A program made the translations under genes and the position numbers. DNA of 64,000 nt from Patescibacteria group bacterium (GTDB lineage: Bacteria; Patescibacteriota; Patescibacteriia; XYB2-FULL-38-15). Of the stretch, positions 6,008-54,908 are shown piece by piece; position 1 is the first letter of the stretch; the number at the start of each line of letters is the position of its first letter. The stretch is from positions 149,757 through 213,756 of the forward strand of contig JBAZJZ010000001.1 of assembly GCA_041650995.1 (NCBI GenBank). The letters are read 5' to 3'. The notes beneath the pieces are model-generated. The model was not told where the DNA came from and did not search any database. It saw nothing but the letters and a program-made list of their open reading frames with translations.

Positions 6008-6019
6008 ATGTTTTGAAAT

Positions 6020-6056
6020 AAAAAAAGAGAGCTTGTCGAAGGCTCTCGGTCGGTTC
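6020..6056 (-). terminator. rho-independent terminator for the minus-strand ORFan (hairpin gagagc-N9-gctctc plus T-run on minus strand)
   Basis: Perfect 6-bp stem at 6036..6056. The A-run 6020..6035 on + reads as a U-run on -. Confidence 0.55.
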
Positions 6057-6074
6057 GCGTGTTTGCAAACCGTT

Positions 6075-6341
6075 TTACGACTTCCGCTGTCGCGTCTCGC
6101 GGTAATGTAGAATTATTCCCACGACCGTGATGATGAAGAAGAGTATTTGTACGGCACCAATGCGCCAGGCTCCAGACATGAATGCATCAATTCCGATGCC
6201 AAGTTGGCCGAGGAGCGAGAAGATCATGAAGAGTAAAAACTCCCGATCGTAAGTGAGCTTTGTGCCCTTGAGTGAAAGTCGCACCCATGCGATCGCTTGG
6301 AGGGTTATCAAGAAATACAGAACGAGTCGAAGTCCGTCCAT
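6075..6341 (-). CDS. small membrane protein, GC-elevated ORFan (88 aa from ATG; the track ORF starts at an upstream GTG)
   Basis: Only minus-strand gene in the first 60 kb. ~50 % GC versus ~33 % in the flanks. AAGGAGG RBS 5 nt before the ATG (plus CAT at 6339..6341). 2-3 TM helices. Confidence 0.55.
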   Translation of the reverse strand: MDGLRLVLYFLITLQAIAWVRLSLKGTKLTYDREFLLFMIFSLLGQLGIGIDAFMSGAWRIGAVQILFFIITVVGIILHYRETRQRKS

Positions 6342-6357
6342 TAGTTCCTCCTTCTTT

Positions 6358-6407
6358 ACCACAACTTTGTGGTCGTTTAATATTAATGGATATTAGAAAA
6401 TTGTCAA
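6358..6407 (-). promoter_or_regulatory. sigma70-like promoter for the minus ORFan (-35 TTGACA = plus 6402..6407, -10 TAATAT ~6380..6385) with a perfect palindrome ACCACAA-CT-TTGTGGT (6358..6373) at about +1
   Basis: Read from the reverse complement. The 7-bp-arm palindrome sits between promoter and RBS, an operator-like placement. Confidence 0.45.
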
Positions 6408-6438
6408 CATAAATTCAGTTTCGTCTTTTAGTGATTTT

Positions 6439-13388: not shown

Positions 13389-13418
13389 CTTGACAAAATA
13401 CGGAATATATGTTATACT
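13389..13418 (+). promoter_or_regulatory. near-consensus sigma70 promoter TTGACA-N18-TATACT driving a ~410-nt leader and the high-GC ORFan
   Basis: cccTTGACAaaatacggaatatatgtTATACTta. Extended TG present. Confidence 0.55.
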
Positions 13419-13830
13419 TACTTGTTAAGCTGAAATAGGCTTAAAGATTAAAAAAAGTGCTTGTCGTGCTGGAACAGATGCGCTTCGCGCGCTGTTCTCC
13501 TACGAATTACGAATCTATTACGAATATACGAATAGATTACGCACATTGAAAAAAGTGCCAGAGAAACTTGGAGGAGGAAAGTCTTCGTGAACCATTAATT
13601 GGTAACCACGAGACCCGGCATGAGGTTCAATTAAATTTCGGTGTCCGTCCTGCGGATTACTAAAAGTTAATTGACCAAAATGCCACCGGCCAGTCCTGTG
13701 TTATCAGGACAGGCCAACTCACCTCCAAATTCCTCTGGCACACTCCGTAGAATCGGAGAGCCAAAGGTCAGATCGTGGATGGTTCCCGGTCTGATTTTTC
13801 ATAACTGCCAAGAGAAGAAGGAGATTGGAT

Positions 13831-14910
13831 ATGGCGGAAGCGACGAAGATCGTCCCGGTGCCGGCAGGCACCCTGACCGACGAGGATTACGAGGAAATGA
13901 TCGTCGCCGCCATGCCGTCTCCCGTGGAGACGCAGGTGGCGCCGACCCTGGTCGTGACCGAGCCGGAGAAGCCGGCCGAGCCCAAGAAGCGGCGGGTTTG
14001 CAGCAAGTGCGGCCACCACGACGGGAACAGCGTCGGCAGGATCAGGCGTGGTCGACTGGCCGAGAAGTGGGACAAGGAGCGGGGCATCAGGGTGTACTAC
14101 GTCGATTGGTTCTGCCAGCCCTGCCTCGACCGCGAGTCCGAATTGCTCGAGCTCGAATGCGATCCGCGTCCGGTCGGCAAGGGCGGATACCTCATCGCCC
14201 TTTGCGGCCTCCGGAACAAGGAGGAGGCCGAGCGCTACGCCGCTCGGACCGCCAGGGAGCGGTACCAGGTGGCGAAGGCCACATGGCTCGCCATCCTGGC
14301 GGGCGAGAAGCCCTTCCTCGAGAACGTCGAGAGGGAGACGGGGTGCTGCGAGTTCGGCGGCTGCGACACCGAAGTGGACGCCGAGGTGTTCGCTGTCGTG
14401 AACGGCCAGCTTCGCCGCTTCTGTCGCCTCCACGCCGAGACGCTGCGGGAGATCAAGGTGAAGGGGCGGAACAAAGACCCGCGCCTCATGGCCTGGCGAG
14501 GTCCGGAAGCTGAGGCCAAGTGCCAGCGGCACTTGGCCTGGCTCAGGCACCAGGCCAAGGAAGCCGAGCGCCGCGCGACCCCGGCGAGCCCCGAGTTCGT
14601 CGATCGTCTGAAGGGCGTCTTCGACCGTCGCTCCAACGATGAGCGCAAGGCCGACAGGAGCGAGGCGTCTCGGACCGCCAAGGAGCGGCAGGCGGCCTAC
14701 GCCGCGGCGCTTCGGAACGGCGGGAGCCTCGCTGACGTCGTGTCCGTGTCCGAAGAGACGGTCGAGACCAGGGACGACGGCTCGGATCCGGTCTGGGCCG
14801 AGATCGTCGCCCACAACCACGCGGTCGACGCCCGCTGCGCCGGCAAGCGCAAGAAGGGTGGCGGCAAGAAGGACGGCAAGGACAAGGGCGGCAAGAACAA
14901 GCGCCGCTAG
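13831..14910 (+). CDS. high-GC ORFan: Cys-cluster (Zn-binding-like) protein with lysine-rich C-terminal tail
   Basis: AAGGAG RBS 13817..13822, ATG 13831. ~65 % GC with G/C at ~90 % of third positions in this frame only; the minus 13768..14952 and other-frame ORFs are shadows. CSKCGHH...CQPC and CCEFGGCD...C clusters. KRKKGGGKKDGKDKGGKNKRR tail. Confidence 0.7.
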   Translation: MAEATKIVPVPAGTLTDEDYEEMIVAAMPSPVETQVAPTLVVTEPEKPAEPKKRRVCSKCGHHDGNSVGRIRRGRLAEKWDKERGIRVYYVDWFCQPCLDRESELLELECDPRPVGKGGYLIALCGLRNKEEAERYAARTARERYQVAKATWLAILAGEKPFLENVERETGCCEFGGCDTEVDAEVFAVVNGQLRRFCRLHAETLREIKVKGRNKDPRLMAWRGPEAEAKCQRHLAWLRHQAKEAERRATPASPEFVDRLKGVFDRRSNDERKADRSEASRTAKERQAAYAAALRNGGSLADVVSVSEETVETRDDGSDPVWAEIVAHNHAVDARCAGKRKKGGGKKDGKDKGGKNKRR

Positions 14911-14941
14911 CCGTCCCCTCGGTTCGTTCCTTTCAATATTT

Positions 14942-15063
14942 TCTTGGAGCAAGTAGTCTGTGCAATGCAGACACTGTTTGCAAATCGAGAAATCGAGGCG
15001 TGACAGGATCTTGCTCCAAGTCCCTTTCCTCTGAATCAGTATAAGTTGGTTTGGAGGAAAGGG
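14942..15063. repeat. nested inverted repeats downstream of the high-GC ORF
   Basis: cttggagcaag (14942..14952) / cttgctccaag (15009..15019). tccctttcctc (15021..15031) / gaggaaaggga (15053..15063). Internal gtctg-N7-cagac and a tandem aaatcgag x2. Confidence 0.6.
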
Positions 15064-15121
15064 ATTAATAACAAAAACAAAATTTTAGTCATTTTTGACT
15101 ATATTTAAATCCCATACAAGA

Positions 15122-15148
15122 ACACTGCCGCTTGGCGGTGTTTTTGTT
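15122..15148 (+). terminator. terminator-like hairpin (cactgccgc-ttg-gcggtg) + TTTTTGTTTT
   Basis: GC stem with U-run, directly upstream of the recJ promoter box (TGcTATAAT at 15159..15167). Confidence 0.5.
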
Positions 15149-36954: not shown

Positions 36955-39075
36955 ATGGAGGAAGTCGCATTGTTCGCTGAAACAAATTTTCGGGGGGAGC
37001 GGAAACGTTTCGGCATAAAAACCGACGATCGCCGTCGGCACATGTATATCATCGGTAAAACCGGCATGGGAAAAACTACCACGCTGGAGAATTTGATTAT
37101 CTCCGATATCAGAGCGGGTCGCGGTGTGGGCGTGGTTGATCCACATGGCGACTTAGCGGAAAAAATTCTTGATTTCATCCCGGCGGATAGAATTAACGAC
37201 GTGGTTTATTTTAATCCGGCTGACTTGGATTGGCCGATTGCTTTTAATATTTTGGAATCAATTGATCCAAGATATAAACACCTTGTCGCTTCCGGTATGA
37301 TGGGAGTTTTCAAAAAAATCTGGCCGGATGTTTGGTCGGCCCGAATGGAATATATTTTGAATAATACAATTTTAGCGCTCTTGGATTGTCCGGGGTCCAC
37401 GATGCTTGGCATCAACCGGATGTTGGCCGACAAGGATTATCGGAAAAAAGTTATTCTTAAATTGAAAGATCCGGTGGTTAAAGCTTTTTGGGTTGATGAA
37501 TTTGCAAAATATAATGAAAGATTTGCCACTGAAGCGATCGCACCAATTCAGAATAAAGTTGGTCAGTTTTTATCGGCTTCAATCGTTAGAAATATTGTTG
37601 GCCAGGTGAAATCTACGATTGATATGCGCGAGATAATGGACAGCCAAAAGATTTTTATAATGAATTTAGCAAAAGGCCGGATAGGTGAAGACGCGAGCGC
37701 TCTTTTGGGAAATATGCTTGTTACAAGAATTCAGTTGGCAGCCATGGGGCGCGTTGATATTCCGGAACCTCAGAGAAAAGATTTTTATCTCTATGTCGAC
37801 GAATTTCAAAATTTTGCCACGCTGAGTTTTGCCAATATTTTATCCGAGGCCAGAAAATATCGTTTGAATTTGATTTTAGCTCATCAATATATTGAACAGT
37901 TGGCCGAAGAAGTTGCCGCCGCTGTTTTTGGCAATGTCGGAACAATTGTTGCTTTTCGAATTGGCGCGGCTGATGCCGAGGTTTTGGAAAAGGAATTTTC
38001 ACCAACCTTCACGTCTGAAGATTTGGTAAATCTGACTAAGTACGACACGTACATGAAATTGATGATCAATGGAGTATCATCAACGCCTTTTTCCGCTTCG
38101 GGTTTGCCGCCAGTTATGGGCCCGACTGATAATCGAGATAAAGTCATCCGCGTTTCCCGGGAACGTTATGCCAAGCCGAAGGAAATCGTTGAAGAAAAAA
38201 TTATTCGCTGGAGCGGAATGCAGGTTATTGGCACTGAAGAAAAATCAGATGAAGAACTTGAAGCGGAGATTAAAAAGTCAATTGAAGAAAAAAAGAAAGA
38301 GGCAGAAGGTCTAAAAAGCGGAGTAGCGGAGGCGGGAGAAAAGAAAAAACCGGAAATGTCTCAAGTCGAACTTGAAGAACGTGCCATTACCGCTCGTGAA
38401 GCATTTTTGGAAAAATCAAAAGTTCAAGCGGTTGATTTCTTAAAAATTTTTGCTTCAGAACCAGAAGAAAGGGAAAAGATTATTGAAGAACAAGAAATAA
38501 AAAAGGAAGTGGCTGCTCCAACCGTGATTGTACGCCCGCCGAAAGTTGTGATTAAACCGACAGAACAAATTAATATAGATATACAAATAAAGGAACCGCA
38601 GCGGCATGAAAAGCCGGCAAGGGAAGAAAAAAGGGTGCCGGTTCAAAAACAAGAAAAAGCTGTCCCTCAAAAATCAGCGACAGAGGAAGATCTTCCGTCG
38701 CCCCTGAAGCTGGATGAGCCGGAGGAGAAAAAAATTGCATCTGTTTCGGAAAATCTCCCTACAGTTTCTTTGGATAAAAAATCAACTCCGGCTGTGATGC
38801 CCGCGCCTCCAGCTGTTTTGCCGATTAAAAAAGAAGAAAAGAAAAAAGAAGAGGATAGGGATAAAAAGACATTTGAAGAAAAATTTCCTTACGAAATAAT
38901 TTGCTCGGCTTGCGGAAAACCGGATAGAGTTTCTTTTAACCCCGATCCGAATCGGCCAGTTTATTGTAAGGCCTGTCTCAAAATTGAAAAAGAAAAGGAA
39001 AGGCAGGCGAAGAAAAATAAAAATAGACAGAAACAAGTGCCACGAGCCGCAGGAACGGAGCCGAAGAGTTCATAA
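36955..39075 (+). CDS. VirD4/TraG-like (DUF87/HerA-FtsK superfamily) P-loop ATPase with K/E-rich linker and C-terminal CxxC...CxxC zinc ribbon
   Basis: Walker A IIGKTGMGKTT, Walker B FYLYVDEFQNF, 'TraD/TraG' type DNA-binding core. Terminal CSACGKPDRVSFNPDPNRPVYCKAC. Confidence 0.65.
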   Translation: MEEVALFAETNFRGERKRFGIKTDDRRRHMYIIGKTGMGKTTTLENLIISDIRAGRGVGVVDPHGDLAEKILDFIPADRINDVVYFNPADLDWPIAFNILESIDPRYKHLVASGMMGVFKKIWPDVWSARMEYILNNTILALLDCPGSTMLGINRMLADKDYRKKVILKLKDPVVKAFWVDEFAKYNERFATEAIAPIQNKVGQFLSASIVRNIVGQVKSTIDMREIMDSQKIFIMNLAKGRIGEDASALLGNMLVTRIQLAAMGRVDIPEPQRKDFYLYVDEFQNFATLSFANILSEARKYRLNLILAHQYIEQLAEEVAAAVFGNVGTIVAFRIGAADAEVLEKEFSPTFTSEDLVNLTKYDTYMKLMINGVSSTPFSASGLPPVMGPTDNRDKVIRVSRERYAKPKEIVEEKIIRWSGMQVIGTEEKSDEELEAEIKKSIEEKKKEAEGLKSGVAEAGEKKKPEMSQVELEERAITAREAFLEKSKVQAVDFLKIFASEPEEREKIIEEQEIKKEVAAPTVIVRPPKVVIKPTEQINIDIQIKEPQRHEKPAREEKRVPVQKQEKAVPQKSATEEDLPSPLKLDEPEEKKIASVSENLPTVSLDKKSTPAVMPAPPAVLPIKKEEKKKEEDRDKKTFEEKFPYEIICSACGKPDRVSFNPDPNRPVYCKACLKIEKEKERQAKKNKNRQKQVPRAAGTEPKSS

Positions 39076-39688: not shown

Positions 39689-39748
39689 AAAAGAAAGAGT
39701 TGACAAAATTGTTTTTTTAATATATCCTCTCTCCAAGAGGAGGAGCAA

Positions 39749-40054
39749 ATGTTGGACGACGGTGGAATAGACTGGGGTGATGATGTCCGCGAGGGGAGGA
39801 TGGTTCGTTGGCGCGATCCGCGAAACGCGGAATTGTTCAACAGCGGTCCTGGACCATTCCGCGCGGTGAGAGTTAGAGAAGATGAAGCTGCTCCCGTTTG
39901 TACTTGCGGTGGTAATGGCGGTGGTTTGCTCGACGATGGGCACAGTTTTCATTGTGAAATTCGAGTGAAGCGGGTTGTGGCAACGTTCGTGACGGTCGTA
40001 ATGAACGGACGGCATTGTTCTTTTGACGCAGATCTCTTCGAGGTCGAGAAGTGA
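39749..40054 (+). CDS. GC-rich ORFan, 101 aa, Cys/His-containing
   Basis: Own promoter (TTGACA at ~39701), strong RBS AGAGGAGGAG 6 nt before the ATG. ~60 % GC with GC-rich third positions. VCTCGGNGGG...HSFHC...C. Confidence 0.55.
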   Translation: MLDDGGIDWGDDVREGRMVRWRDPRNAELFNSGPGPFRAVRVREDEAAPVCTCGGNGGGLLDDGHSFHCEIRVKRVVATFVTVVMNGRHCSFDADLFEVEK

Positions 40055-40061
40055 GGACAGA

Positions 40062-40094
40062 AAGCGATGGTTAAAAGCCGTCGCTTGTTTTTTA
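40062..40094 (+). terminator. rho-independent terminator after the GC-rich ORFan (gcgatgg-ttaaaag-ccgtcgc + TTTTTT)
   Basis: Stem with one G-U pair and a U-run. Confidence 0.6.
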
Positions 40095-47640: not shown

Positions 47641-47847
47641 ATGGATCAGAAATTTGATCAAGCATTTGTGAATTACAATCTTGATTTGAAAGCGGCACGT
47701 ATCCGGAATGGCACGGATCACGGCCCGGTATCCAACCTCAGCTACAAGTGTGTTGAGTGCGGAAAATTCGTGAGCGGCCGGGTGGTTGATTTTTACGATG
47801 GAGAGGTTGAGAGAGTCCGGTGCTACGAGTGCCAAAATAAAGAATAA
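47641..47847 (+). CDS. small Zn-ribbon protein (CVECGKF...CYECQ)
   Basis: 68 aa, two CxxC pairs. First gene after operator copy 1. Confidence 0.5.
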   Translation: MDQKFDQAFVNYNLDLKAARIRNGTDHGPVSNLSYKCVECGKFVSGRVVDFYDGEVERVRCYECQNKE

Positions 47848-47856
47848 TTTTAAATT

Positions 47857-48159
47857 ATGGAAAATCAAAAATCAGTTTATACGCAGTACGCCGAAGTGGA
47901 CAAACAAATTAAAGATCTCCAAGAAAAACAAAAAATACTTCAGGTTGAGTGCTTAGTAGAAATGGAAAAAAGAAAAGCCACTCAAATAAAAACAGATCTC
48001 GGAATTTTCTCGGTAGCCGAAAGAAGAACCTGGACTTATAGCGCGGACTTGAAAAAAGAAGAAACAAACATCAAGGCCCTAAAAAAGGCGGAGGAAATTT
48101 CGGGCAAGGCGACGTGTGAAATTTCAAAGTCAATGAGATTTCTAAAAGCAAAAGAGTAA
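47857..48159 (+). CDS. hypothetical coiled-coil protein
   Basis: 100 aa, charged/helical. Confidence 0.4.
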   Translation: MENQKSVYTQYAEVDKQIKDLQEKQKILQVECLVEMEKRKATQIKTDLGIFSVAERRTWTYSADLKKEETNIKALKKAEEISGKATCEISKSMRFLKAKE

Positions 48160-48174
48160 AAATTTATAAAAACT

Positions 48175-48206
48175 TTAATCTCACACCAAGGTGTGAAGAA
48201 AGGAAA
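48175..48206 (+). promoter_or_regulatory. 32-bp operator+RBS module copy 2
   Basis: Identical to 47607..47638. Palindrome at 48181..48196. ATG of the next gene at 48210. Confidence 0.65.
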
Positions 48207-48209
48207 AGT

Positions 48210-49022
48210 ATGGCTGATACCATGAAGCCGGAAAATGAAAAAAGAGAACCGACACAAATTGTTAAAGCAGGAGAAAGTTTACCGCCGCAATTGATTGATC
48301 CGGCTAAGCAAGTTGAATTTGCCGGCCGCGCGGCCAAAGTTTTGATGGATATTATCAAAACAAAACCAAAAAAATTAGTTTTAAATGGTGAGCAATACAT
48401 TGAGTTTGAGGATTGGCAGACTGTCGCGCGGTTCTACAACATGACGGTTGGCGTTGACTGGACAAGAGAGATTATGCGTGAAGGAAAAATCCACGGATTT
48501 GAAGCCAAGGCAAATGTCTACAATTCTGGCGGAACAATAATCTCGTCGGCCGAAGCATCTTGTTTAAGGGATGAACCAAAATGGAATACCCGATCAAAAT
48601 ACGAATATAAAAATGGTAAGAGAAATAAAGTTAGTGACGAATTGGTCCCAGAATTTCAGTTAAAAAGTATGGCACAGACGCGGGCCTCTGCCAAGGCGTT
48701 GCGCAACGTGCTGGCCTGGGTTGTAGTGCTGGCTGGGTTCAAGGCCACGCCGGCTGAAGAAATGGATGGTGTAGAGGGTTTTGAGAGCCGGGCCGCAGCG
48801 CCGCCCGCAGGGTCAGTTGCCAGACCGGCAGTAAGACCTCCGGTTGCACCGGTCGCAAAAGATACATCGGCCAATGTTCCGGGAATTCCTGAAGAAAAAT
48901 TAATCTGCGCGATGACCGGTGTTAAAATCACTCAGGAAGAATATGCCTACAGCATGCGCAAATACGGAATGCCTTTAAGCCGGGCCGCGCAAAGAGAACA
49001 GCAGCAAGGAGGGGGAAATTAA
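48210..49022 (+). CDS. putative phage single-strand annealing protein (RecT/ERF-like), tentative
   Basis: 270 aa. Central region (LVLNGEQYIEFEDWQTVARFYNMTV...KSMAQTRASAKALRNVLAWVV) resembles RecT/Redbeta-type SSAPs. Ala/Pro-rich C-terminus. Adjacent to an exonuclease and RusA. Confidence 0.35.
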   Translation: MADTMKPENEKREPTQIVKAGESLPPQLIDPAKQVEFAGRAAKVLMDIIKTKPKKLVLNGEQYIEFEDWQTVARFYNMTVGVDWTREIMREGKIHGFEAKANVYNSGGTIISSAEASCLRDEPKWNTRSKYEYKNGKRNKVSDELVPEFQLKSMAQTRASAKALRNVLAWVVVLAGFKATPAEEMDGVEGFESRAAAPPAGSVARPAVRPPVAPVAKDTSANVPGIPEEKLICAMTGVKITQEEYAYSMRKYGMPLSRAAQREQQQGGGN

Positions 49023-49023
49023 T

Positions 49024-49302
49024 ATGGCAAATCCCATGGGAAAATTCGCGACTGGATGGAAAACAAATAAATTTAAAAGACTTGTCGGAGCAAAAAAGAT
49101 GTTGAATGTCGCGGCTATAAATCTTAATTCTGTATCAAAAGAAATCGGACGCGCGATTAAGGACGAGGAGCATGGGAGTGAGGAATTAGTCAGAGCCTTG
49201 GATTACGCCGTAAAAATAGGACAGATAAGCGAAGAGGTTGGAATGGAACTTCTAAGTGACAAGCAGAAGGCGGATAAATTTCTTTCGACGGGGGAAGTCT
49301 AA
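49024..49302 (+). CDS. hypothetical protein
   Basis: 92 aa. TAATATG overlap with the upstream gene. Confidence 0.35.
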   Translation: MANPMGKFATGWKTNKFKRLVGAKKMLNVAAINLNSVSKEIGRAIKDEEHGSEELVRALDYAVKIGQISEEVGMELLSDKQKADKFLSTGEV

Positions 49303-49324
49303 CTAACCACTAAACGCTTGTCTT

Positions 49325-49834
49325 ATGGCTACGCGAAAAAGAATGTTAGCGCCAAACATTTGGCAGGACTCAGGGTTTGGCCTTCTCTCTCAGGTTGGCA
49401 AATTGCTTTGGATCGGATGTATCACTCAGGCTGATGATGAGGGACGATTGACTGGCAATCCGGTTGTCTTAAAAGGCATTCTGTTTCCTTTTGGCGATCC
49501 TGATTTGAATGATGTTTTTGACGGAGTAGAAGAACTGCGCCAAACGATGAAAAATTTTATTCTTTACGAGGTTGGCGGTGAATGTTTCATCCAGTTAAAA
49601 AATTGGAAAATACATCAAATTTTGAGAGCAGACAGAAAGGCCGATTCGACCTTTCCTGCGCCACCTCGGGAGGCATTGGTTGATAAACGGTTGTCGGGCG
49701 GTTGTCAGGTGGGGACACAAGTAAGTAAGGAAGTAAGTAAGCAAGGAAGCAATGACGCCGCAATAAAAATTTTAAACCATTGGCGGACCGAACTGGAGAG
49801 CAAGGGAATTCTTACTAAAAAAAAGTTAATTTAA
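49325..49834 (+). CDS. putative replication initiation / replisome-organizer N-terminal domain protein, tentative
   Basis: 169 aa. Winged-helix-like N-terminal segment (WIGCITQADDEGRLTGNPVVLKGILF). Position within the replication/recombination module. Confidence 0.3.
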   Translation: MATRKRMLAPNIWQDSGFGLLSQVGKLLWIGCITQADDEGRLTGNPVVLKGILFPFGDPDLNDVFDGVEELRQTMKNFILYEVGGECFIQLKNWKIHQILRADRKADSTFPAPPREALVDKRLSGGCQVGTQVSKEVSKQGSNDAAIKILNHWRTELESKGILTKKKLI

Positions 49835-49838
49835 TTTT

Positions 49839-50048
49839 ATGACAGAACAGGAATTGAGAAAAGATAAAAATTTAGTTCTTTGCAGTCATTGTGACACACC
49901 GGCAAGTTGGGATTTATCATGCGAAGCTGGATGGGTTGGCTGTGCGCCATGTATCACTGGAGAGGCGGCAAGTTTTGATCCGGGAGATTTAATTGCTGCC
50001 GACAAAGATTGTACTGATTCTTTTTTGGAAGAATTTAATAAAAAATAA
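49839..50048 (+). CDS. small Cys-rich protein
   Basis: 69 aa, CSHCD...C...CAPC. Confidence 0.35.
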   Translation: MTEQELRKDKNLVLCSHCDTPASWDLSCEAGWVGCAPCITGEAASFDPGDLIAADKDCTDSFLEEFNKK

Positions 50049-50053
50049 ACAAA

Positions 50054-50470
50054 ATGACCCCCTCGGAAATTAGAGAAAATTTCCAACTCTACCAGTCCGG
50101 CAAGATCTCGCTTGCGGACTATACTCACCGAATCACGCCGGCCGGTAGAGTTATTGCGCCGGTTCCGCAAACTATGCAGATTCCATTTTTTGACGCCGCA
50201 AAAACTCAAAGAGCAAAACTACTCAATTTATTGCAAGATGGTTTGCCACATTCTACGCCGGAAATTATGCAAAAAGTTTATGGCAACGAGCATTGTGGCA
50301 TCGCGCGAATCGGCGCGCGAATAAACGATCTTGTAAAAGAGGGTTATGTATTCGTTGACGAAAATGGGATTGAACTTAAAGAGAATCGGCGCGGTTGGGC
50401 TGACAAAAATGACAGATCGGTTTACTGGTATTGTCTTAAAGAATTTAGACAAAAATGGTATGCGAAATAA
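50054..50470 (+). CDS. hypothetical protein, possible winged-helix DNA-binding domain
   Basis: 138 aa. LPHSTPEIMQKVYGNEHCGIARIGARINDLVKEGYVFVD resembles a wHTH. Confidence 0.3.
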   Translation: MTPSEIRENFQLYQSGKISLADYTHRITPAGRVIAPVPQTMQIPFFDAAKTQRAKLLNLLQDGLPHSTPEIMQKVYGNEHCGIARIGARINDLVKEGYVFVDENGIELKENRRGWADKNDRSVYWYCLKEFRQKWYAK

Positions 50471-50492
50471 TTTATAAATAATTAATTTTTCC

Positions 50493-51065
50493 ATGAAAAT
50501 AATTTATTTTGATACTGAAACGACCGGCCTCAATCCAGTGGTTAATGACATAATTCAATTTGCCGGAATAATTGAAATTGATGGTGAAGAAAAAGAAAGA
50601 TTTGATTTTAAATTACAGCCATTCAGTTACGAAAATATAAATCAGTCCGCGATGTCTGTTCACGGAATTACCGCTGAGCAACTTAAAAATTTTGATTCTC
50701 CCGGAGAAGCCTATAATAAAATAATTTCTATTTTTGACAAATACATTGATAAATATGATAAAAACGATAAATTTATTGTTTGCGGGTATAACGTAAAATT
50801 TGATGTAGATTTTTTAAAAGAATTTTTTTCTAAAAATAAAAATAATTATTTATTTTCATATTTTGGGGTTGTTAAAGATCCATTGCCCGTTCTCGGATAT
50901 TTGAAGAGCATTAATAAAATAGATTGCGAGAATTTAAAACTTGAATCAGTTTGTAAAATATTTGGAATAGAAATTTTTAATGCTCACAATGCCTTGGCTG
51001 ATATTGATGCGACAAGATCGGTTATAAAAAAAGTTGATGAGATATTAAATTCGGTCAAACTTTAA
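50493..51065 (+). CDS. DEDDh 3'-5' exonuclease (DnaQ/epsilon-like)
   Basis: Exo I YFDTETTGL, Exo II (FIVCGYNVKFDVDFL), Exo III (HNALADIDATRSV). Confidence 0.75.
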   Translation: MKIIYFDTETTGLNPVVNDIIQFAGIIEIDGEEKERFDFKLQPFSYENINQSAMSVHGITAEQLKNFDSPGEAYNKIISIFDKYIDKYDKNDKFIVCGYNVKFDVDFLKEFFSKNKNNYLFSYFGVVKDPLPVLGYLKSINKIDCENLKLESVCKIFGIEIFNAHNALADIDATRSVIKKVDEILNSVKL

Positions 51066-51083
51066 TCATTAAATAAAAATATT

Positions 51084-51320
51084 ATGGCTGGTATGCCAAG
51101 TAAAGGGGAAATTACAATCACGAGTAAAAATGCCGCTAAAATTTTTGATGCTGCCAGAGAAAAAATAGACAATTTAGTGATTGGAAATGCGAAATGGATA
51201 TGTCCGATTTTTTGGATGTATTGTCCGCGGTGTTTAAAAGTTCATGTCTTCAATAAAAAAACAAATAAAAAATGCAGAGATCAAATAATGAAAATTATAT
51301 CGGCCCAACTGGCAAAGTAA
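51084..51320 (+). CDS. small Cys-containing hypothetical protein
   Basis: 78 aa. WICPIFWMYCPRCLK. Confidence 0.3.
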   Translation: MAGMPSKGEITITSKNAAKIFDAAREKIDNLVIGNAKWICPIFWMYCPRCLKVHVFNKKTNKKCRDQIMKIISAQLAK

Positions 51321-51523
51321 AATGCCAAGAAATACAGCTCAAAGGCGGTGCCAAAGTGATTGTCAACTGGAGTAGTAAAACAAAATGCAAATGCGGCGCA
51401 GAATTTTGGTGGGCATGCACTAAAAATCACAAAATGATTCCGATTGTTTTGGTTGGTCATTGTGAATGGGCCGCACACTTCGCCGATTGTCCGCTTGCGG
51501 GTAAATTTAGAAAAAATAAATAA
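51272..51523 (+). CDS. small Cys-rich hypothetical protein (overlaps previous ORF by 49 nt, start uncertain)
   Basis: 83 aa. KCKCGAEFWWAC...HCEWAAHFADCP. Confidence 0.3.
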   Translation: MQRSNNENYIGPTGKVKCQEIQLKGGAKVIVNWSSKTKCKCGAEFWWACTKNHKMIPIVLVGHCEWAAHFADCPLAGKFRKNK

Positions 51524-51528
51524 ATTTT

Positions 51529-51780
51529 ATGCCAAACACTAAAATCGCAGAGCCGATGGATATAAATAAACCGGAGGCAATGCCAGCCAAAATTTATGTC
51601 ATTATTACAAGTGAAAAAGGAGAGGTTGTTTTTCCGAAAGGTCAGGGAGTTCAAATTATAAAGGGTTATTCACTTGAAGACGCTTTCGCCACTATTCGCA
51701 AGGAAAGGCCGGGTACACGAGACGTGACTTTTGTTGCATCACTTCTGCTTGATGATTTTCAAAAGAGTTTGGAGATTTAA
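51529..51780 (+). CDS. hypothetical protein
   Basis: 83 aa. Confidence 0.3.
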   Translation: MPNTKIAEPMDINKPEAMPAKIYVIITSEKGEVVFPKGQGVQIIKGYSLEDAFATIRKERPGTRDVTFVASLLLDDFQKSLEI

Positions 51781-52076
51781 AAATATGAAATGGTTTATTT
51801 GGGCAATTCTTAATTTAATACTTGGATCAATCTATGTAGGTTTGGAGCGCTACGGAATGGCGACATTTATGCTTGGGATATTTTTGTATGGAATGTTCAT
51901 TTCTTTAATTGAGAGAGAAAAATAATTTTTAAAAATGCTTGGTTTTCTTCGTTCTTTATAACAAAAATTTAATCATACCTTTTTGTCTGTTTTTATCAGA
52001 AAGGAGTAAGGGCAAGCATCGTCCGTCAATAAATCATCTTTGAGAAAACAAAAGACGGGCAAGAAATTAAAATATT

Positions 52077-52508
52077 ATGCCAATTAAAAATTATACCACG
52101 ACCGTCCCGGCCAATCGAAGCATTGAAGAAATACAGAGCGCTTTAGTTAAACACGGTGCGTCCGGCGTGCTTTACGAATACGAAAAGGGGACCGGGAGGA
52201 TCGCGGCATTGAAATTTAAACTTCAAATTGGAGAACAGGCGGTGGCATTTTCTCTGCCGGTCAGCTGGCGTCGTTTTCAGGCGGTGTTAGAGGAGCAGCA
52301 AGTTAAGCGCAGCAACGATGAGGATTATGTTTATCGCGTTTCTTGGAGAAATATCAGGGACTGGGTACTAGCGCAGCTCGCGCTTTATGAAACGGAGATG
52401 GTGGAATTGCCTCAAGTATTTTTACCATTCGCGACCGGAAAGGATGGTAGCACTCTTTATGACCGAGTGCTAAATCAAGGCTTTTTATTAACTGATGGTG
52501 AAAAATAA
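52077..52508 (+). CDS. hypothetical protein
   Basis: 143 aa. Confidence 0.35.
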   Translation: MPIKNYTTTVPANRSIEEIQSALVKHGASGVLYEYEKGTGRIAALKFKLQIGEQAVAFSLPVSWRRFQAVLEEQQVKRSNDEDYVYRVSWRNIRDWVLAQLALYETEMVELPQVFLPFATGKDGSTLYDRVLNQGFLLTDGEK

Positions 52509-52642
52509 TTTTATGAAAGAAAGAACAAAAGAGTTAGTAAATCTTCTAGCGATATGTATTTTCTGTATCGGAATTATAACATTTTTAATTATTGTGACAG
52601 TGAGATGTTGGAACATACCACTTATGGAAAGGACCGGGGTTT

Positions 52643-52897
52643 GTGCCATGCAGTTTATGTCACGTTAAATTTATGGATAAACCAAAAAAGTGTTGTGGGC
52701 TTGGAGAGTTTAAATGTCAAATTCCGATGCCAATTAAAGGACGAAGCCAAGACATTGATTTTTGTATAGCAGATATTGTTGCCGCCCTAAACGCCGCAAA
52801 TATCATCACGATTGCCTCTTGTTGCGGACACAAAAAATTTGATGGAAATATTATTTTAGAGGACGGCAGAGAATTGATTATTAAAATTAAAAAATAA
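52643..52897 (+). CDS. small Cys-rich protein
   Basis: 84 aa. CSLCHV...CCGLGEFKCQ...CIADIV...SCCGH. Confidence 0.35.
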   Translation: MPCSLCHVKFMDKPKKCCGLGEFKCQIPMPIKGRSQDIDFCIADIVAALNAANIITIASCCGHKKFDGNIILEDGRELIIKIKK

Positions 52898-53103
52898 ACC
52901 CACGAATAAACCCTGAGAGACAAATAGGCGGAAAGAATTAAAATTTTAGAGTATGAAGGAAAAATGTAATGGCTGCGGAAAAGAGGGTGGTGTGATCAAG
53001 CACTACATCATTGCCGACGATTTGGAAAATCCCCGCCCTTACCACCAGTCTTGTTTTAGAAATATGATTTGGCGCGCCTGGCAGAAATGGAAGGAGGCGA
53101 AGA

Positions 53104-53457
53104 ATGATTAAAATTTTGATGGATAATATCCGGCCGCTTTCAGTTAATGAGGCATGGCAAGGCCGGAGGTTTAAAACAAAAAAGTATAAAAATTATGAGC
53201 GTGAGCTGCTGTACTCTTTGCCGGCCAGGGAGAAGATTCTGGGAACCGTGGGAGTGGATATTAAGTTTTATTTTAAAAATCCGAATTGCCGGGATGTAGA
53301 CAATCCAATTAAGCCGCTGCTCGATATTCTGGACAAAAAAGGATATTTTGAAAATGACAAAAAAATTGTTTGTCTTCACGTGGAGAAAATAAAAAGTGAA
53401 ATGGAAGGTTTTGAAGTTTGTATTTATCCGACTATTTATGTGTCAAAGCAAAATTAA
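53104..53457 (+). CDS. rusA: Holliday-junction resolvase RusA
   Basis: 117 aa. PLSVNEAWQGRRFKTKKYKNYE..., DVDNPIKPLLDIL, ENDKKIV pattern of the RusA family. Confidence 0.65.
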   Translation: MIKILMDNIRPLSVNEAWQGRRFKTKKYKNYERELLYSLPAREKILGTVGVDIKFYFKNPNCRDVDNPIKPLLDILDKKGYFENDKKIVCLHVEKIKSEMEGFEVCIYPTIYVSKQN

Positions 53458-53624
53458 AAAACTCCGGCAACTGTACAAGAGGGAGTTTCGGGAAAAACTT
53501 TTGAACGGCTGGGTACATCTGCCGAGCGCCATTTGGGAGCTGATAAAGCCGAAGCCAAAATGGATGCCGCAATTTTTGTGGGTTAAATTAATAAGATTAG
53601 TTTTAAAAATTGACGAAGTAGAAA

Positions 53625-54908
53625 ATGGAAATAAAACAAATCAAAATCAAGGAACTCCTCCCGTCGGAATACAACCCCCGGATAATGCCGGACGACGAGA
53701 TGAAAAAACTGATTAGATCGATTCAGGAATTTGGTTTTGTGGAGCCGGTAGTGGTAAACCAGCATCCGGGGAGGGAGAACATCATCATCGGCGGCCACCA
53801 GAGAGTTCTGGCTGCCAAAACGCTCGGCTACGAAGAGGTGCCGGTTGTTTTTGTCAGCCTTACGCCGGAGAAAGAAAAGTTGCTGAATCTCGCGCTGAAC
53901 AGAATTTCCGGATCGTGGGAAGAAGAAAAGCTGGCCGCGCTTTTGTCCGAACTGGAAGAAGCAGACGTTGATTTATTTTTATCCGGTTTTAATTCGGCCG
54001 AGATAGACGAGCTGCTGAAAAATTTTCATGAGACAAAGGAAGAAGATTTTAATGCCGTAGAGGAATTGGAAAAAATTACCACACCGGAATCTAAGCCCGG
54101 GGAAATTTATGAGTTGGGCCGGCATAGATTGCTTTGCGGTGATAGTACGGAAATTCTGAATCTGAAAAAATTGATAGGAGAGAATATAATAGATTTGGTT
54201 TTTACTGATCCGCCGTTCAACGTCGGTTATAAATCAAGCGGCAAAAATCGGGACAAGTGGTCTGAAGCGTATGGAGATGATGATTACACGGACGAGGGCT
54301 TTGATGAATTTTGTATAAAAGTATTTGGAAATTTTAAGAAATTTTTAAAGGGTGGTGGTGCTTATTATGTTTGCTCGGGCTGGAGTTCCTGGGCATCTTT
54401 TTGGCAGGCGTTGAAGAAAAACAATTTGAAGCCAAAGGGATGTATTATCTGGGACAAGGGGCATGGCGGGATGGGATGGTCTGATTACTGGTACCAGCAT
54501 GAATTAATCGCAGCCGGGCTGAAATTTGAGGCCACCGGCGACACAGAAAGTGAAGTCTATGAGATGGTGGTTTACGGCTTTGACGAAAAGGCAAAACATT
54601 ATTTTGCCAAGAGGGGCGGCGCGCGGCTTACCGATGTTTGGCGTATTCCGCGAGATCCGAATAACAAGTATGAACATCCAACGCAAAAGCCGCTGAAATT
54701 AATTGAGAACGCGATTTATAACAGCTCGAGGATTGGTGACAAAGTTTTGGATATGTTTGGTGGTTCCGGATCAACTTTAATCGCGTGCGAGCGGACCGGG
54801 CGAACAGCTTTTTTAATTGAGCGTTCGCCTTTGTTTTGTGATGTTATTAGAAAAAGATATGAAAAATTCACCGGAGGAAGAGCAGTTAAAATTACCCCTA
54901 CCGGATGA
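53625..54908 (+). CDS. ParB-like nuclease domain fused to N6-adenine/N4-cytosine DNA methyltransferase
   Basis: ParB N-terminus (LLPSEYNPR...GGHQRVLAA). MTase motif IV DPPFN (TDPPFNVGY) and motif I-like MFGGSGST. Confidence 0.75.
   Translation: MEIKQIKIKELLPSEYNPRIMPDDEMKKLIRSIQEFGFVEPVVVNQHPGRENIIIGGHQRVLAAKTLGYEEVPVVFVSLTPEKEKLLNLALNRISGSWEEEKLAALLSELEEADVDLFLSGFNSAEIDELLKNFHETKEEDFNAVEELEKITTPESKPGEIYELGRHRLLCGDSTEILNLKKLIGENIIDLVFTDPPFNVGYKSSGKNRDKWSEAYGDDDYTDEGFDEFCIKVFGNFKKFLKGGGAYYVCSGWSSWASFWQALKKNNLKPKGCIIWDKGHGGMGWSDYWYQHELIAAGLKFEATGDTESEVYEMVVYGFDEKAKHYFAKRGGARLTDVWRIPRDPNNKYEHPTQKPLKLIENAIYNSSRIGDKVLDMFGGSGSTLIACERTGRTAFLIERSPLFCDVIRKRYEKFTGGRAVKITPTG

Follow-up and report, generated by a model that had tools for sequence, protein, structure and literature searches.

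A short gene between queH and mnmA of a Patescibacteria genome has a composition and expression signals that set it apart from its neighbours, and the locus raises the question of whether it is a foreign cassette recently wedged between two housekeeping genes, as a sequence-only reading had proposed, or a resident gene of the lineage, and of what its 101-residue product might do. The analysis covered the whole stretch of 64,000 nucleotides in which the gene lies (contig JBAZJZ010000001.1, positions 149,757 to 213,756; hereafter the window) and related loci.

Layout, signals and composition of the unit

The flanking genes code for QueH and MnmA (Pfam E-values of 7e-62 and 7e-79, respectively). 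Directly after the queH stop codon begins a sigma-70-type promoter-like site on the forward strand (39700 to 39728), consisting of TTGACA (39700-39705), a 17-nt spacer and TATCCT ending at 39728, which reached a score of 10 out of 12 in the promoter scan. It is followed by the Shine-Dalgarno (SD) sequence AGAGGAGGAG (39736 to 39745, forward strand), whose AGGAGG core (39738-39743) ends 5 nt before the ATG at 39749. The gene itself, 101 codons and a stop (39749 to 40054, forward strand), encodes a Cys/His protein with the stretch VCTCGGNGGG...HSFHC, the product including VCTCGGNGGGLLDDGHSFHC; the identical NCBI entry is MFA5128521.1, 'hypothetical protein WC445_00990 [Patescibacteria group bacterium]', on a 567-kb contig. 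An antisense ORF of 113 aa overlaps it. The codons of a putative structural zinc site, C51-x-C53-x11-H65-x3-C69 (PVCTCGGNGGGLLDDGHSFHC), are found at 39899 to 39955 of the forward strand. An intrinsic terminator follows at 40062 to 40094 on the same strand, composed of a hairpin of 11 pairs at 40062-40086 (AAGCGATGG-TTAAAAG-CCGTCGCTT) and GTTTTTT. Promoter, ribosome-binding site, Cys/His ORF, terminator and flanking genes had all been pointed out by the sequence-only reading, and each was recovered.

The gene was also found in 12 related loci (L001, L004, L007 to L013, L015, L094 and L095), and its signals are conserved with it. A TTGAC(A/G) box after the queH stop and an A/T-rich -10-like box are kept in all 12, as is the GCGATGG...CCGTCGC hairpin with its T-run, in which stem changes preserve the pairing (U-G to U-A in L004, variant stems in L013 and L094). 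An SD of the GGAGG or GGGAGG type lies 5 to 8 nt before the ATG in 11 of the 12 relatives, L094 having the weaker AGGAGA. The unit thus appears to be self-contained from promoter to terminator, both of which are consensus matches backed by this conservation, and the gene appears to have a leader of about 20 to 25 nt with a strong SD. Since no terminator separates queH from the gene in the window, read-through from queH is possible. Pairing of the SD with an upstream pyrimidine stretch, CCUCUCUCC, was predicted in the window (39722-39745) and in L007, L004 and L095. An SD-sequestering leader hairpin was nevertheless dropped as a family feature, because it is absent from the predictions for L010 to L012; the pairing may reflect a lineage-specific translational control or chance.

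The composition of the unit is atypical, as had been claimed. The GC content of the ORF is 0.54, compared to 0.416 for the window and 0.40 to 0.43 for queH, mnmA and alaS, and such a value is attained by just 0.45% of the host 101-codon windows. By codon position it amounts to 0.65, 0.46 and 0.51, against about 0.50, 0.36 and 0.39 in the host. The third positions had been called GC-rich, which holds in relative terms only: the GC3 of 0.51 is about 2.5 standard deviations above the host mean and is attained by 5.4% of the host 101-codon windows, and most of the GC excess of the ORF is due to amino-acid content. The product is enriched in D, R, G and V, depleted in K, I and L, and lacks Q and Y. 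Codon adaptation to the host, proposed earlier as a check, gave a synonymous codon-usage score of z -4.4, the poorest fit among the 58 forward-strand genes of the window that were compared, only the gene of the 13.8-kb cassette described below scoring lower. Atypical composition, by which genomic islands are commonly recognised, is therefore found here (GC of 0.54 against 0.42, z of -4.4).

The translation signals are equally unusual. No SD-like motif is present within 22 nt of the start of 50 of the 61 forward-strand genes of the window, in agreement with the earlier remark that host genes rarely carry one, and a full AGGAGG precedes just three of 61 other window genes, two of them being a pilin-like gene and a RusA gene. 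Many host genes have instead a TAnAAT-like box 6 to 12 nt upstream of the ATG. These boxes, together with the scarcity of SD sequences, suggest that host mRNAs are predominantly leaderless or near-leaderless.

The protein family and its predicted fold

The gene had been described as an ORFan, a term that does not hold. Seven homologue clusters with 55 to 91% identity were found by sequence search and 34 by profile search, and phmmer against 1.84 billion representatives brought up further small proteins of the family. The homologues are 92 to 102 aa long, with the exception of P0012 (66 aa), which looks truncated. Across the related loci the identity of the protein ranges from about 40% to 91%, and is 43% at the most divergent locus compared. 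Among about 15 billion proteins, no homologue was detected beyond the clade, nor was the 101-aa gene found in phage and plasmid collections (tblastn) or in a scan of viral contigs, and the family is single-copy within the window. As delimited by these searches, it is a small protein family confined to one Patescibacteria clade.

The dN/dS ratio of the gene lies between 0.05 and 0.5, mostly between 0.1 and 0.24 (Nei-Gojobori, eight pairs); the same pairs give 0.06 to 0.17 for queH and mnmA. Judged from these ratios, which are below 1 throughout, the gene is under purifying selection; its protein changes at 2 to 4 times the rate of its neighbours.

Structure prediction, which had been suggested earlier, was carried out with AlphaFold on 34 sequences and gave a model with a mean pLDDT of 79. 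The first 10 residues are disordered in the model, and strands are predicted at residues 18-21, 37-47, 76-85, 88-93 and 97-99, with a short helix at 25-29. The predicted fold is a five-stranded, partly open SH3-like beta-barrel. At the level of the fold it can be superposed on known members of this group, with Z-scores no higher than 6 and no family-level match, and such a generic match carries little information on the partner. Residues 48-75 form a 28-residue loop between strands 2 and 3, where the confidence of the model is the lowest of the folded part and where the motif C-x-C-x11-H-x3-C is located. C51, C53 and H65 are invariant among the 34 family members, as are W21, G35, F37 and R88, and C69 is present in 33 of them. 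The motif is probably a structural zinc site. A rubredoxin-like iron site, built of two C-x2-C knuckles, was rejected, as C-x-C...H-x3-C contains no C-x2-C pair. The isoelectric point is between 4.6 and 6.8 in 30 of the 34 members, and this mostly acidic charge argues against simple nucleic-acid binding.

The protein was compared to several databases. In Pfam-A nothing reached the gathering score, the best hits being zf-DPOE (12.6 bits, cutoff 21) and Terpene_syn_C_2 (11.9 bits, cutoff 23.7), and the precomputed annotation of the 34 profile homologues contains no Pfam domain. The Pfam KOW model did not match at E-values up to 1, so that the likeness to KOW is one of fold only. A profile search of PDB sequences returned only chance matches with E-values above 1, PADLOC and PHROGs gave no family at E-values up to 0.1, and nothing in a BFVD fold search had an E-value of 0.001 or better (best 0.02). 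Giant repeat proteins with DUF7507/DUF11 domains were picked up by phmmer and rejected: they cover only residues ~28-73, their scores add up over many repeats, and the resemblance, with a profile-profile probability of 1.4%, stays at the level of an NG-G-LLD-G motif.

The reading that we favour, with a probability of roughly 0.6, is that of a resident, conserved gene of the clade with its own signals and a standing raised GC content, coding for a zinc-stabilised SH3-like binding module. The product would be cytoplasmic, mostly acidic and about 100 residues long, with a Cys-Cys-His-Cys zinc site pinning the long loop between strands 2 and 3, and the barrel would act as a small binding module, an adaptor or a regulator, for a protein or nucleic-acid partner. 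As its translation would depend on an SD in a largely SD-less, apparently leaderless genome, its expression could be controlled separately.

Inheritance and exchange at the queH-mnmA slot

The identity of the small protein varies from 43% to 78% across relatives in which both QueH and MnmA keep a uniform 81 to 85% identity to those of the window; the window and L010, for example, share 43% in this protein, 85% in QueH and 81% in MnmA. In nucleotide alignments, the promoter and 5' end of the L015 gene are 96-100% identical to L008 and less so to L011, the central ~160 nt are 49-62% identical to L008 and 82-87% to L011, and the last ~110 nt with the terminator are again 96-100% identical to L008 and less to L011. 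Such patterns indicate that the alleles of the small gene are mosaics that arose by homologous recombination between clade members. In a comparison for tree congruence between the gene and its flanks, pairwise identities correlate weakly (rho of 0.33 between the gene and QueH, 0.11 between the gene and MnmA, 0.41 between QueH and MnmA), the clade being star-like. A suspected small inserted element (ATGCCCCGT..) at the gene starts in L012 and L096 was rejected, as it is not recurrent.

The slot itself is variable. The window QueH was used to scan 185,579 species genomes, and two close relatives were obtained, L015 (81% identical), which carries the gene, and L014 (87%), which does not. L014 is the closest sequenced genome, and the gene is thus dispensable there; its slot is occupied by an unrelated 276-aa ORF with a GC content of 0.60, a GC3 of 0.74 and an AGGAGG SD. 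In the slot of L001 the small gene is retained, and behind it lie two paralogues of the 276-aa protein, 38% and 29% identical to it, and an ORF of 72 aa; each of these extra genes has its own TTGACAAAC box, an SD of the AGGAGG or GGAGA type and a long hairpin terminator.

These larger genes make up a second GC-rich family of the slot (276, 284 and 275 aa; L014 4630-5460, L001 8397-10640), which replaces the small gene in L014 and sits beside it and the 72-aa ORF in L001. Its units are closed by a long hairpin of near-identical sequence, GCTGGCCAAATTGCGCAACGGCGCGATCGGCCAGC, with a T-run behind it, and the L014 276-aa and L001 284-aa proteins, when scanned, matched nothing in Pfam, PHROGs or PADLOC. 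A terminator or attC-like motif shared between the cassettes was considered and rejected, as GCGATGG...CCGTCGC occurs once in the window and its partial resemblance to the long hairpins of the ~280-aa cassettes found no support in a motif search across loci.

The uneven divergence of the small gene could reflect a module of one gene with a part in conflict, for example an immunity, anti-phage or anti-defence protein or an inhibitor of a competitor or host factor, with divergent alleles kept by frequency-dependent selection in an exchangeable slot. The spread of 43 to 78% beside uniform flanks, the mosaic alleles with a trough of divergence in the middle of the gene and near-identical ends, the alternative GC-rich genes of the slot and the combination of a small acidic protein with strong expression signals all point in this direction. 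Against it, neither PADLOC nor PHROGs gave a match and BFVD no significant viral structural match, dN/dS remains below 1, and no partner gene was found, nor were mobile-element genes seen beside the slot. We consider such a role unlikely.

The surroundings of the slot are stable. In all 12 loci the gene lies between queH and mnmA, or beside whichever of the two the contig reaches, and in the 11 loci that extend upstream it is located directly 3' of queH, the L094 contig starting 96 nt before the gene. The conserved block comprises DUF8128, a TrwB-like ATPase, queH, the gene, mnmA, alaS, infA, rpsM, rpsK, rpsD, rpoA and rplQ, and genes for a sigma factor and a DUF5667 protein are found upstream of queH in L008, L012, L013 and L095. 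The ATPase of the window (36955-39075, 706 aa) is a TrwB/TraG-like coupling protein with a C-terminal treble-clef zinc finger, and the pair that it forms with the preceding DUF8128 gene is conserved across the clade. L015 is an 886-kb 'chromosome' (OZ246416.1) titled 'uncultured Gammaproteobacteria bacterium'; it has the Patescibacteria-type syntenic block and the small gene, and its title is probably a mislabel.

The constant position next to queH could mean that the protein serves QueH, or QueH and MnmA, for instance as a docking or electron-relay subunit that brings reductant to the Fe-S enzyme QueH, in which case the Cys/His site might bind iron. The adjacency holds in 11 of 11 loci, including those with other genes upstream of queH; to our knowledge, it has not been established which reductant QueH uses physiologically, and the barrel recalls the ferredoxin-docking subunits NdhS and PsaE. 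However, these two are just two among many equally scored SH3-like matches, and adjacency carries little weight where the whole block is syntenic in a shallow clade. The gene is served by a conserved promoter-like site and a terminator of its own, L014 keeps a QueH that is 87% identical without it, and none of 78 more distant QueH loci, including those of the Patescibacteria L016 and L086, carries the small-gene family. A dedicated function with QueH is accordingly improbable in our view.

The proposal with which the locus was introduced, a foreign cassette from a GC-richer donor recently inserted between housekeeping genes, accounts for the outlying composition and codon usage and for the use of an SD unlike that of the host genes. 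It also fits a variable slot (the 276-aa gene of 60% GC in L014, the three extra GC-rich genes in L001) and mosaic alleles, which imply exchange of DNA at the locus. The exchange observed, however, is between clade members and involves no outside donor, and no homologue was found beyond the clade, whether among the proteins or in phages, plasmids and viral contigs. The same position and the same regulatory signals occur in the 12 relatives, down to about 40% protein identity. Moreover, the gene has diverged at synonymous sites about as much as queH and mnmA have (dS of 0.95 against 1.32 and 0.86 between the window and L004; 1.36 against 1.26 for queH between L001 and L009), which fits inheritance together with the neighbours. 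Absence from the site in close relatives or an outside donor, which would mark a genomic island, is not what was seen, since 12 of 13 related loci contain the gene.

The sequence-only reading had regarded conserved presence in relatives with a host-like composition as evidence against a foreign origin, and had proposed comparing the queH-mnmA interval across genomes. The slot did prove to be variable and to take other GC-rich genes, the small gene itself being retained in 12 of the 13 related loci, but its composition is host-like in none: its GC content is 0.53 to 0.575 and its GC3 0.50 to 0.69 in all 13 loci with the window included, compared to a GC3 of 0.32 to 0.51 for queH and mnmA in the 11 loci where the flanks were measured. 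As the raised GC is kept although synonymous sites have largely turned over between several of the lineages (dS of about 1), it is an equilibrium property rather than the un-ameliorated trace of a recent import; it may be maintained by GC-biased gene conversion at a hot spot of recombination or by selection acting on synonymous sites. The idea of a recently wedged-in alien element is therefore largely refuted, and we regard it as very improbable.

The shortness of the ORF, the overlapping antisense ORF and the lack of a known domain might suggest that it arose by chance in a GC-richer stretch that is non-coding or codes for an RNA. The probability of this is close to nil, as it is already refuted by a substitution pattern with dN/dS well below 1, near-invariant Cys, His, Trp and Gly columns and frame-preserving indels, to which is added the correctly spaced SD in 11 of 12 relatives. 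Rfam gave no meaningful match in the whole window or, at E-values up to 1, at the locus, and an RNA element was consequently rejected.

Other GC-rich units and known systems

Two further cassettes of the window, at 13.8 kb and 6.1 kb, had been likened to the queH-mnmA unit, and the likeness is borne out, as both combine TTGACA, an AGGAG(G) SD and a raised GC3. The 13.8-kb cassette (WC445_00860; 13390-15130) has a TTGACAAAAT box at 13390, a leader of ~430 nt and an ORF at 13831-14910 for a Cys- and Lys-rich protein of 359 aa, with a GC content of 0.68 and a GC3 of 0.89. A homologue with 70% identity occupies the same lepA-X-recJ slot of L096. Between the window and L096 the dS of this gene is 0.35, compared to ~0.9 for lepA and recJ, and its dN/dS is 0.54; by eye, the two copies hardly differ in the long leader and in the 3' region, and no Rfam match was found for the cassette. 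Synonymous sites and untranslated regions of this unit thus look more constrained than its protein. The 6.1-kb cassette (6010-6410, minus strand), which is among the very few convincing minus-strand genes of the window, encodes a hydrophobic protein of 88 aa (6075-6341; GC3 of 0.60), with TTGACA near 6405, the SD AGGAGGAAC and a hairpin terminator near 6025-6045, in the same architecture as the 101-aa unit.

Of the eight genes that fit the host codon usage worst, six (47857, 49024, 49325, 50054, 52077 and 53625) cluster in a different region, at ~47800-54900 of the window. This region also contains an SD-led gene for a RusA endonuclease at 53104, and its GC content falls to 0.28 at 50400-51200. 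It may be a prophage or mobile-element remnant.

It is conceivable, although improbable, that the clade has a distinct class of genes made of short autonomous units with TTGACA, a strong SD and a hairpin, whose GC content is actively maintained and which are swapped between strains in fixed slots. What keeps the GC high would then be either selection at synonymous positions or, at recombination hot spots, GC-biased gene conversion, and the candidate members are the 101-aa, 88-aa and 359-aa genes of the window and the ~280-aa and 72-aa genes of the relatives. If such a class were real, an accessory gene pool of these ultra-small symbionts that recombines and is regulated separately would be recognisable from its composition and translation signals. 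Taken with the other GC-rich SD-led units, the 101-aa gene suggests that a limited group of genes differs from the leaderless bulk in its translation, and perhaps in its regulation, and recombines between strains. A resident gene can evidently have an 'alien' composition and 'alien' signals as stable traits that are inherited, which calls for caution in composition-based calling of islands in reduced genomes. Uncharacterised lineage-restricted small proteins are common in Patescibacteria. Should this one prove to be a partner of QueH or a factor in conflicts at the level of strains, it would offer a way into the redox supply of tRNA modification or on the population biology of uncultured episymbionts.

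With regard to known systems, the protein shares its predicted fold with SH3-like small beta-barrels such as Tudor, the KOW domains of Spt5/NusG, SH3, PsaE, NdhS and R67 DHFR. It has no sequence relation to them (no Pfam and no PDB sequence match) and no KOW motif, and its 28-residue loop with four conserved Cys/His residues is missing from the families named. By sequence comparison, it belongs to no described family. It resembles CCHC zinc knuckles and structural zinc loops in its four conserved ligand-type residues, which lie within 19 residues in a Gly-rich loop. The retroviral knuckle has the spacing C-x2-C-x4-H-x4-C, from which the C-x-C-x11-H-x3-C of the 101-aa protein differs, and the zinc knuckle is a free-standing finger, whereas the putative site described here is embedded in a loop of the barrel.

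Integron cassettes and genomic islets have in common with the queH-mnmA slot that a single site takes alternative or added short genes, each ending in a hairpin. Integron cassettes are, however, typically promoterless, whereas the units of the slot carry their own promoter and SD, and the slot hairpins end in T-runs like ordinary terminators, with a short GC stem at the 101-aa gene. No integrase was seen among the neighbouring genes in the related loci, nor an attI, and the exchange observed at the slot is, unlike that of integron cassettes, homologous recombination between alleles. From its sequence features, the 101-aa unit is not an integron gene cassette.

FESNov-type catalogues collect families without a known domain, from uncultivated lineages, under purifying selection and with conserved neighbours (PMC10849945). 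The 101-aa family has all of these properties, and would stand out among such families by the shallow clade to which it belongs (flanking proteins 75-94% identical), by its distinct composition and by the mosaicism of its alleles.
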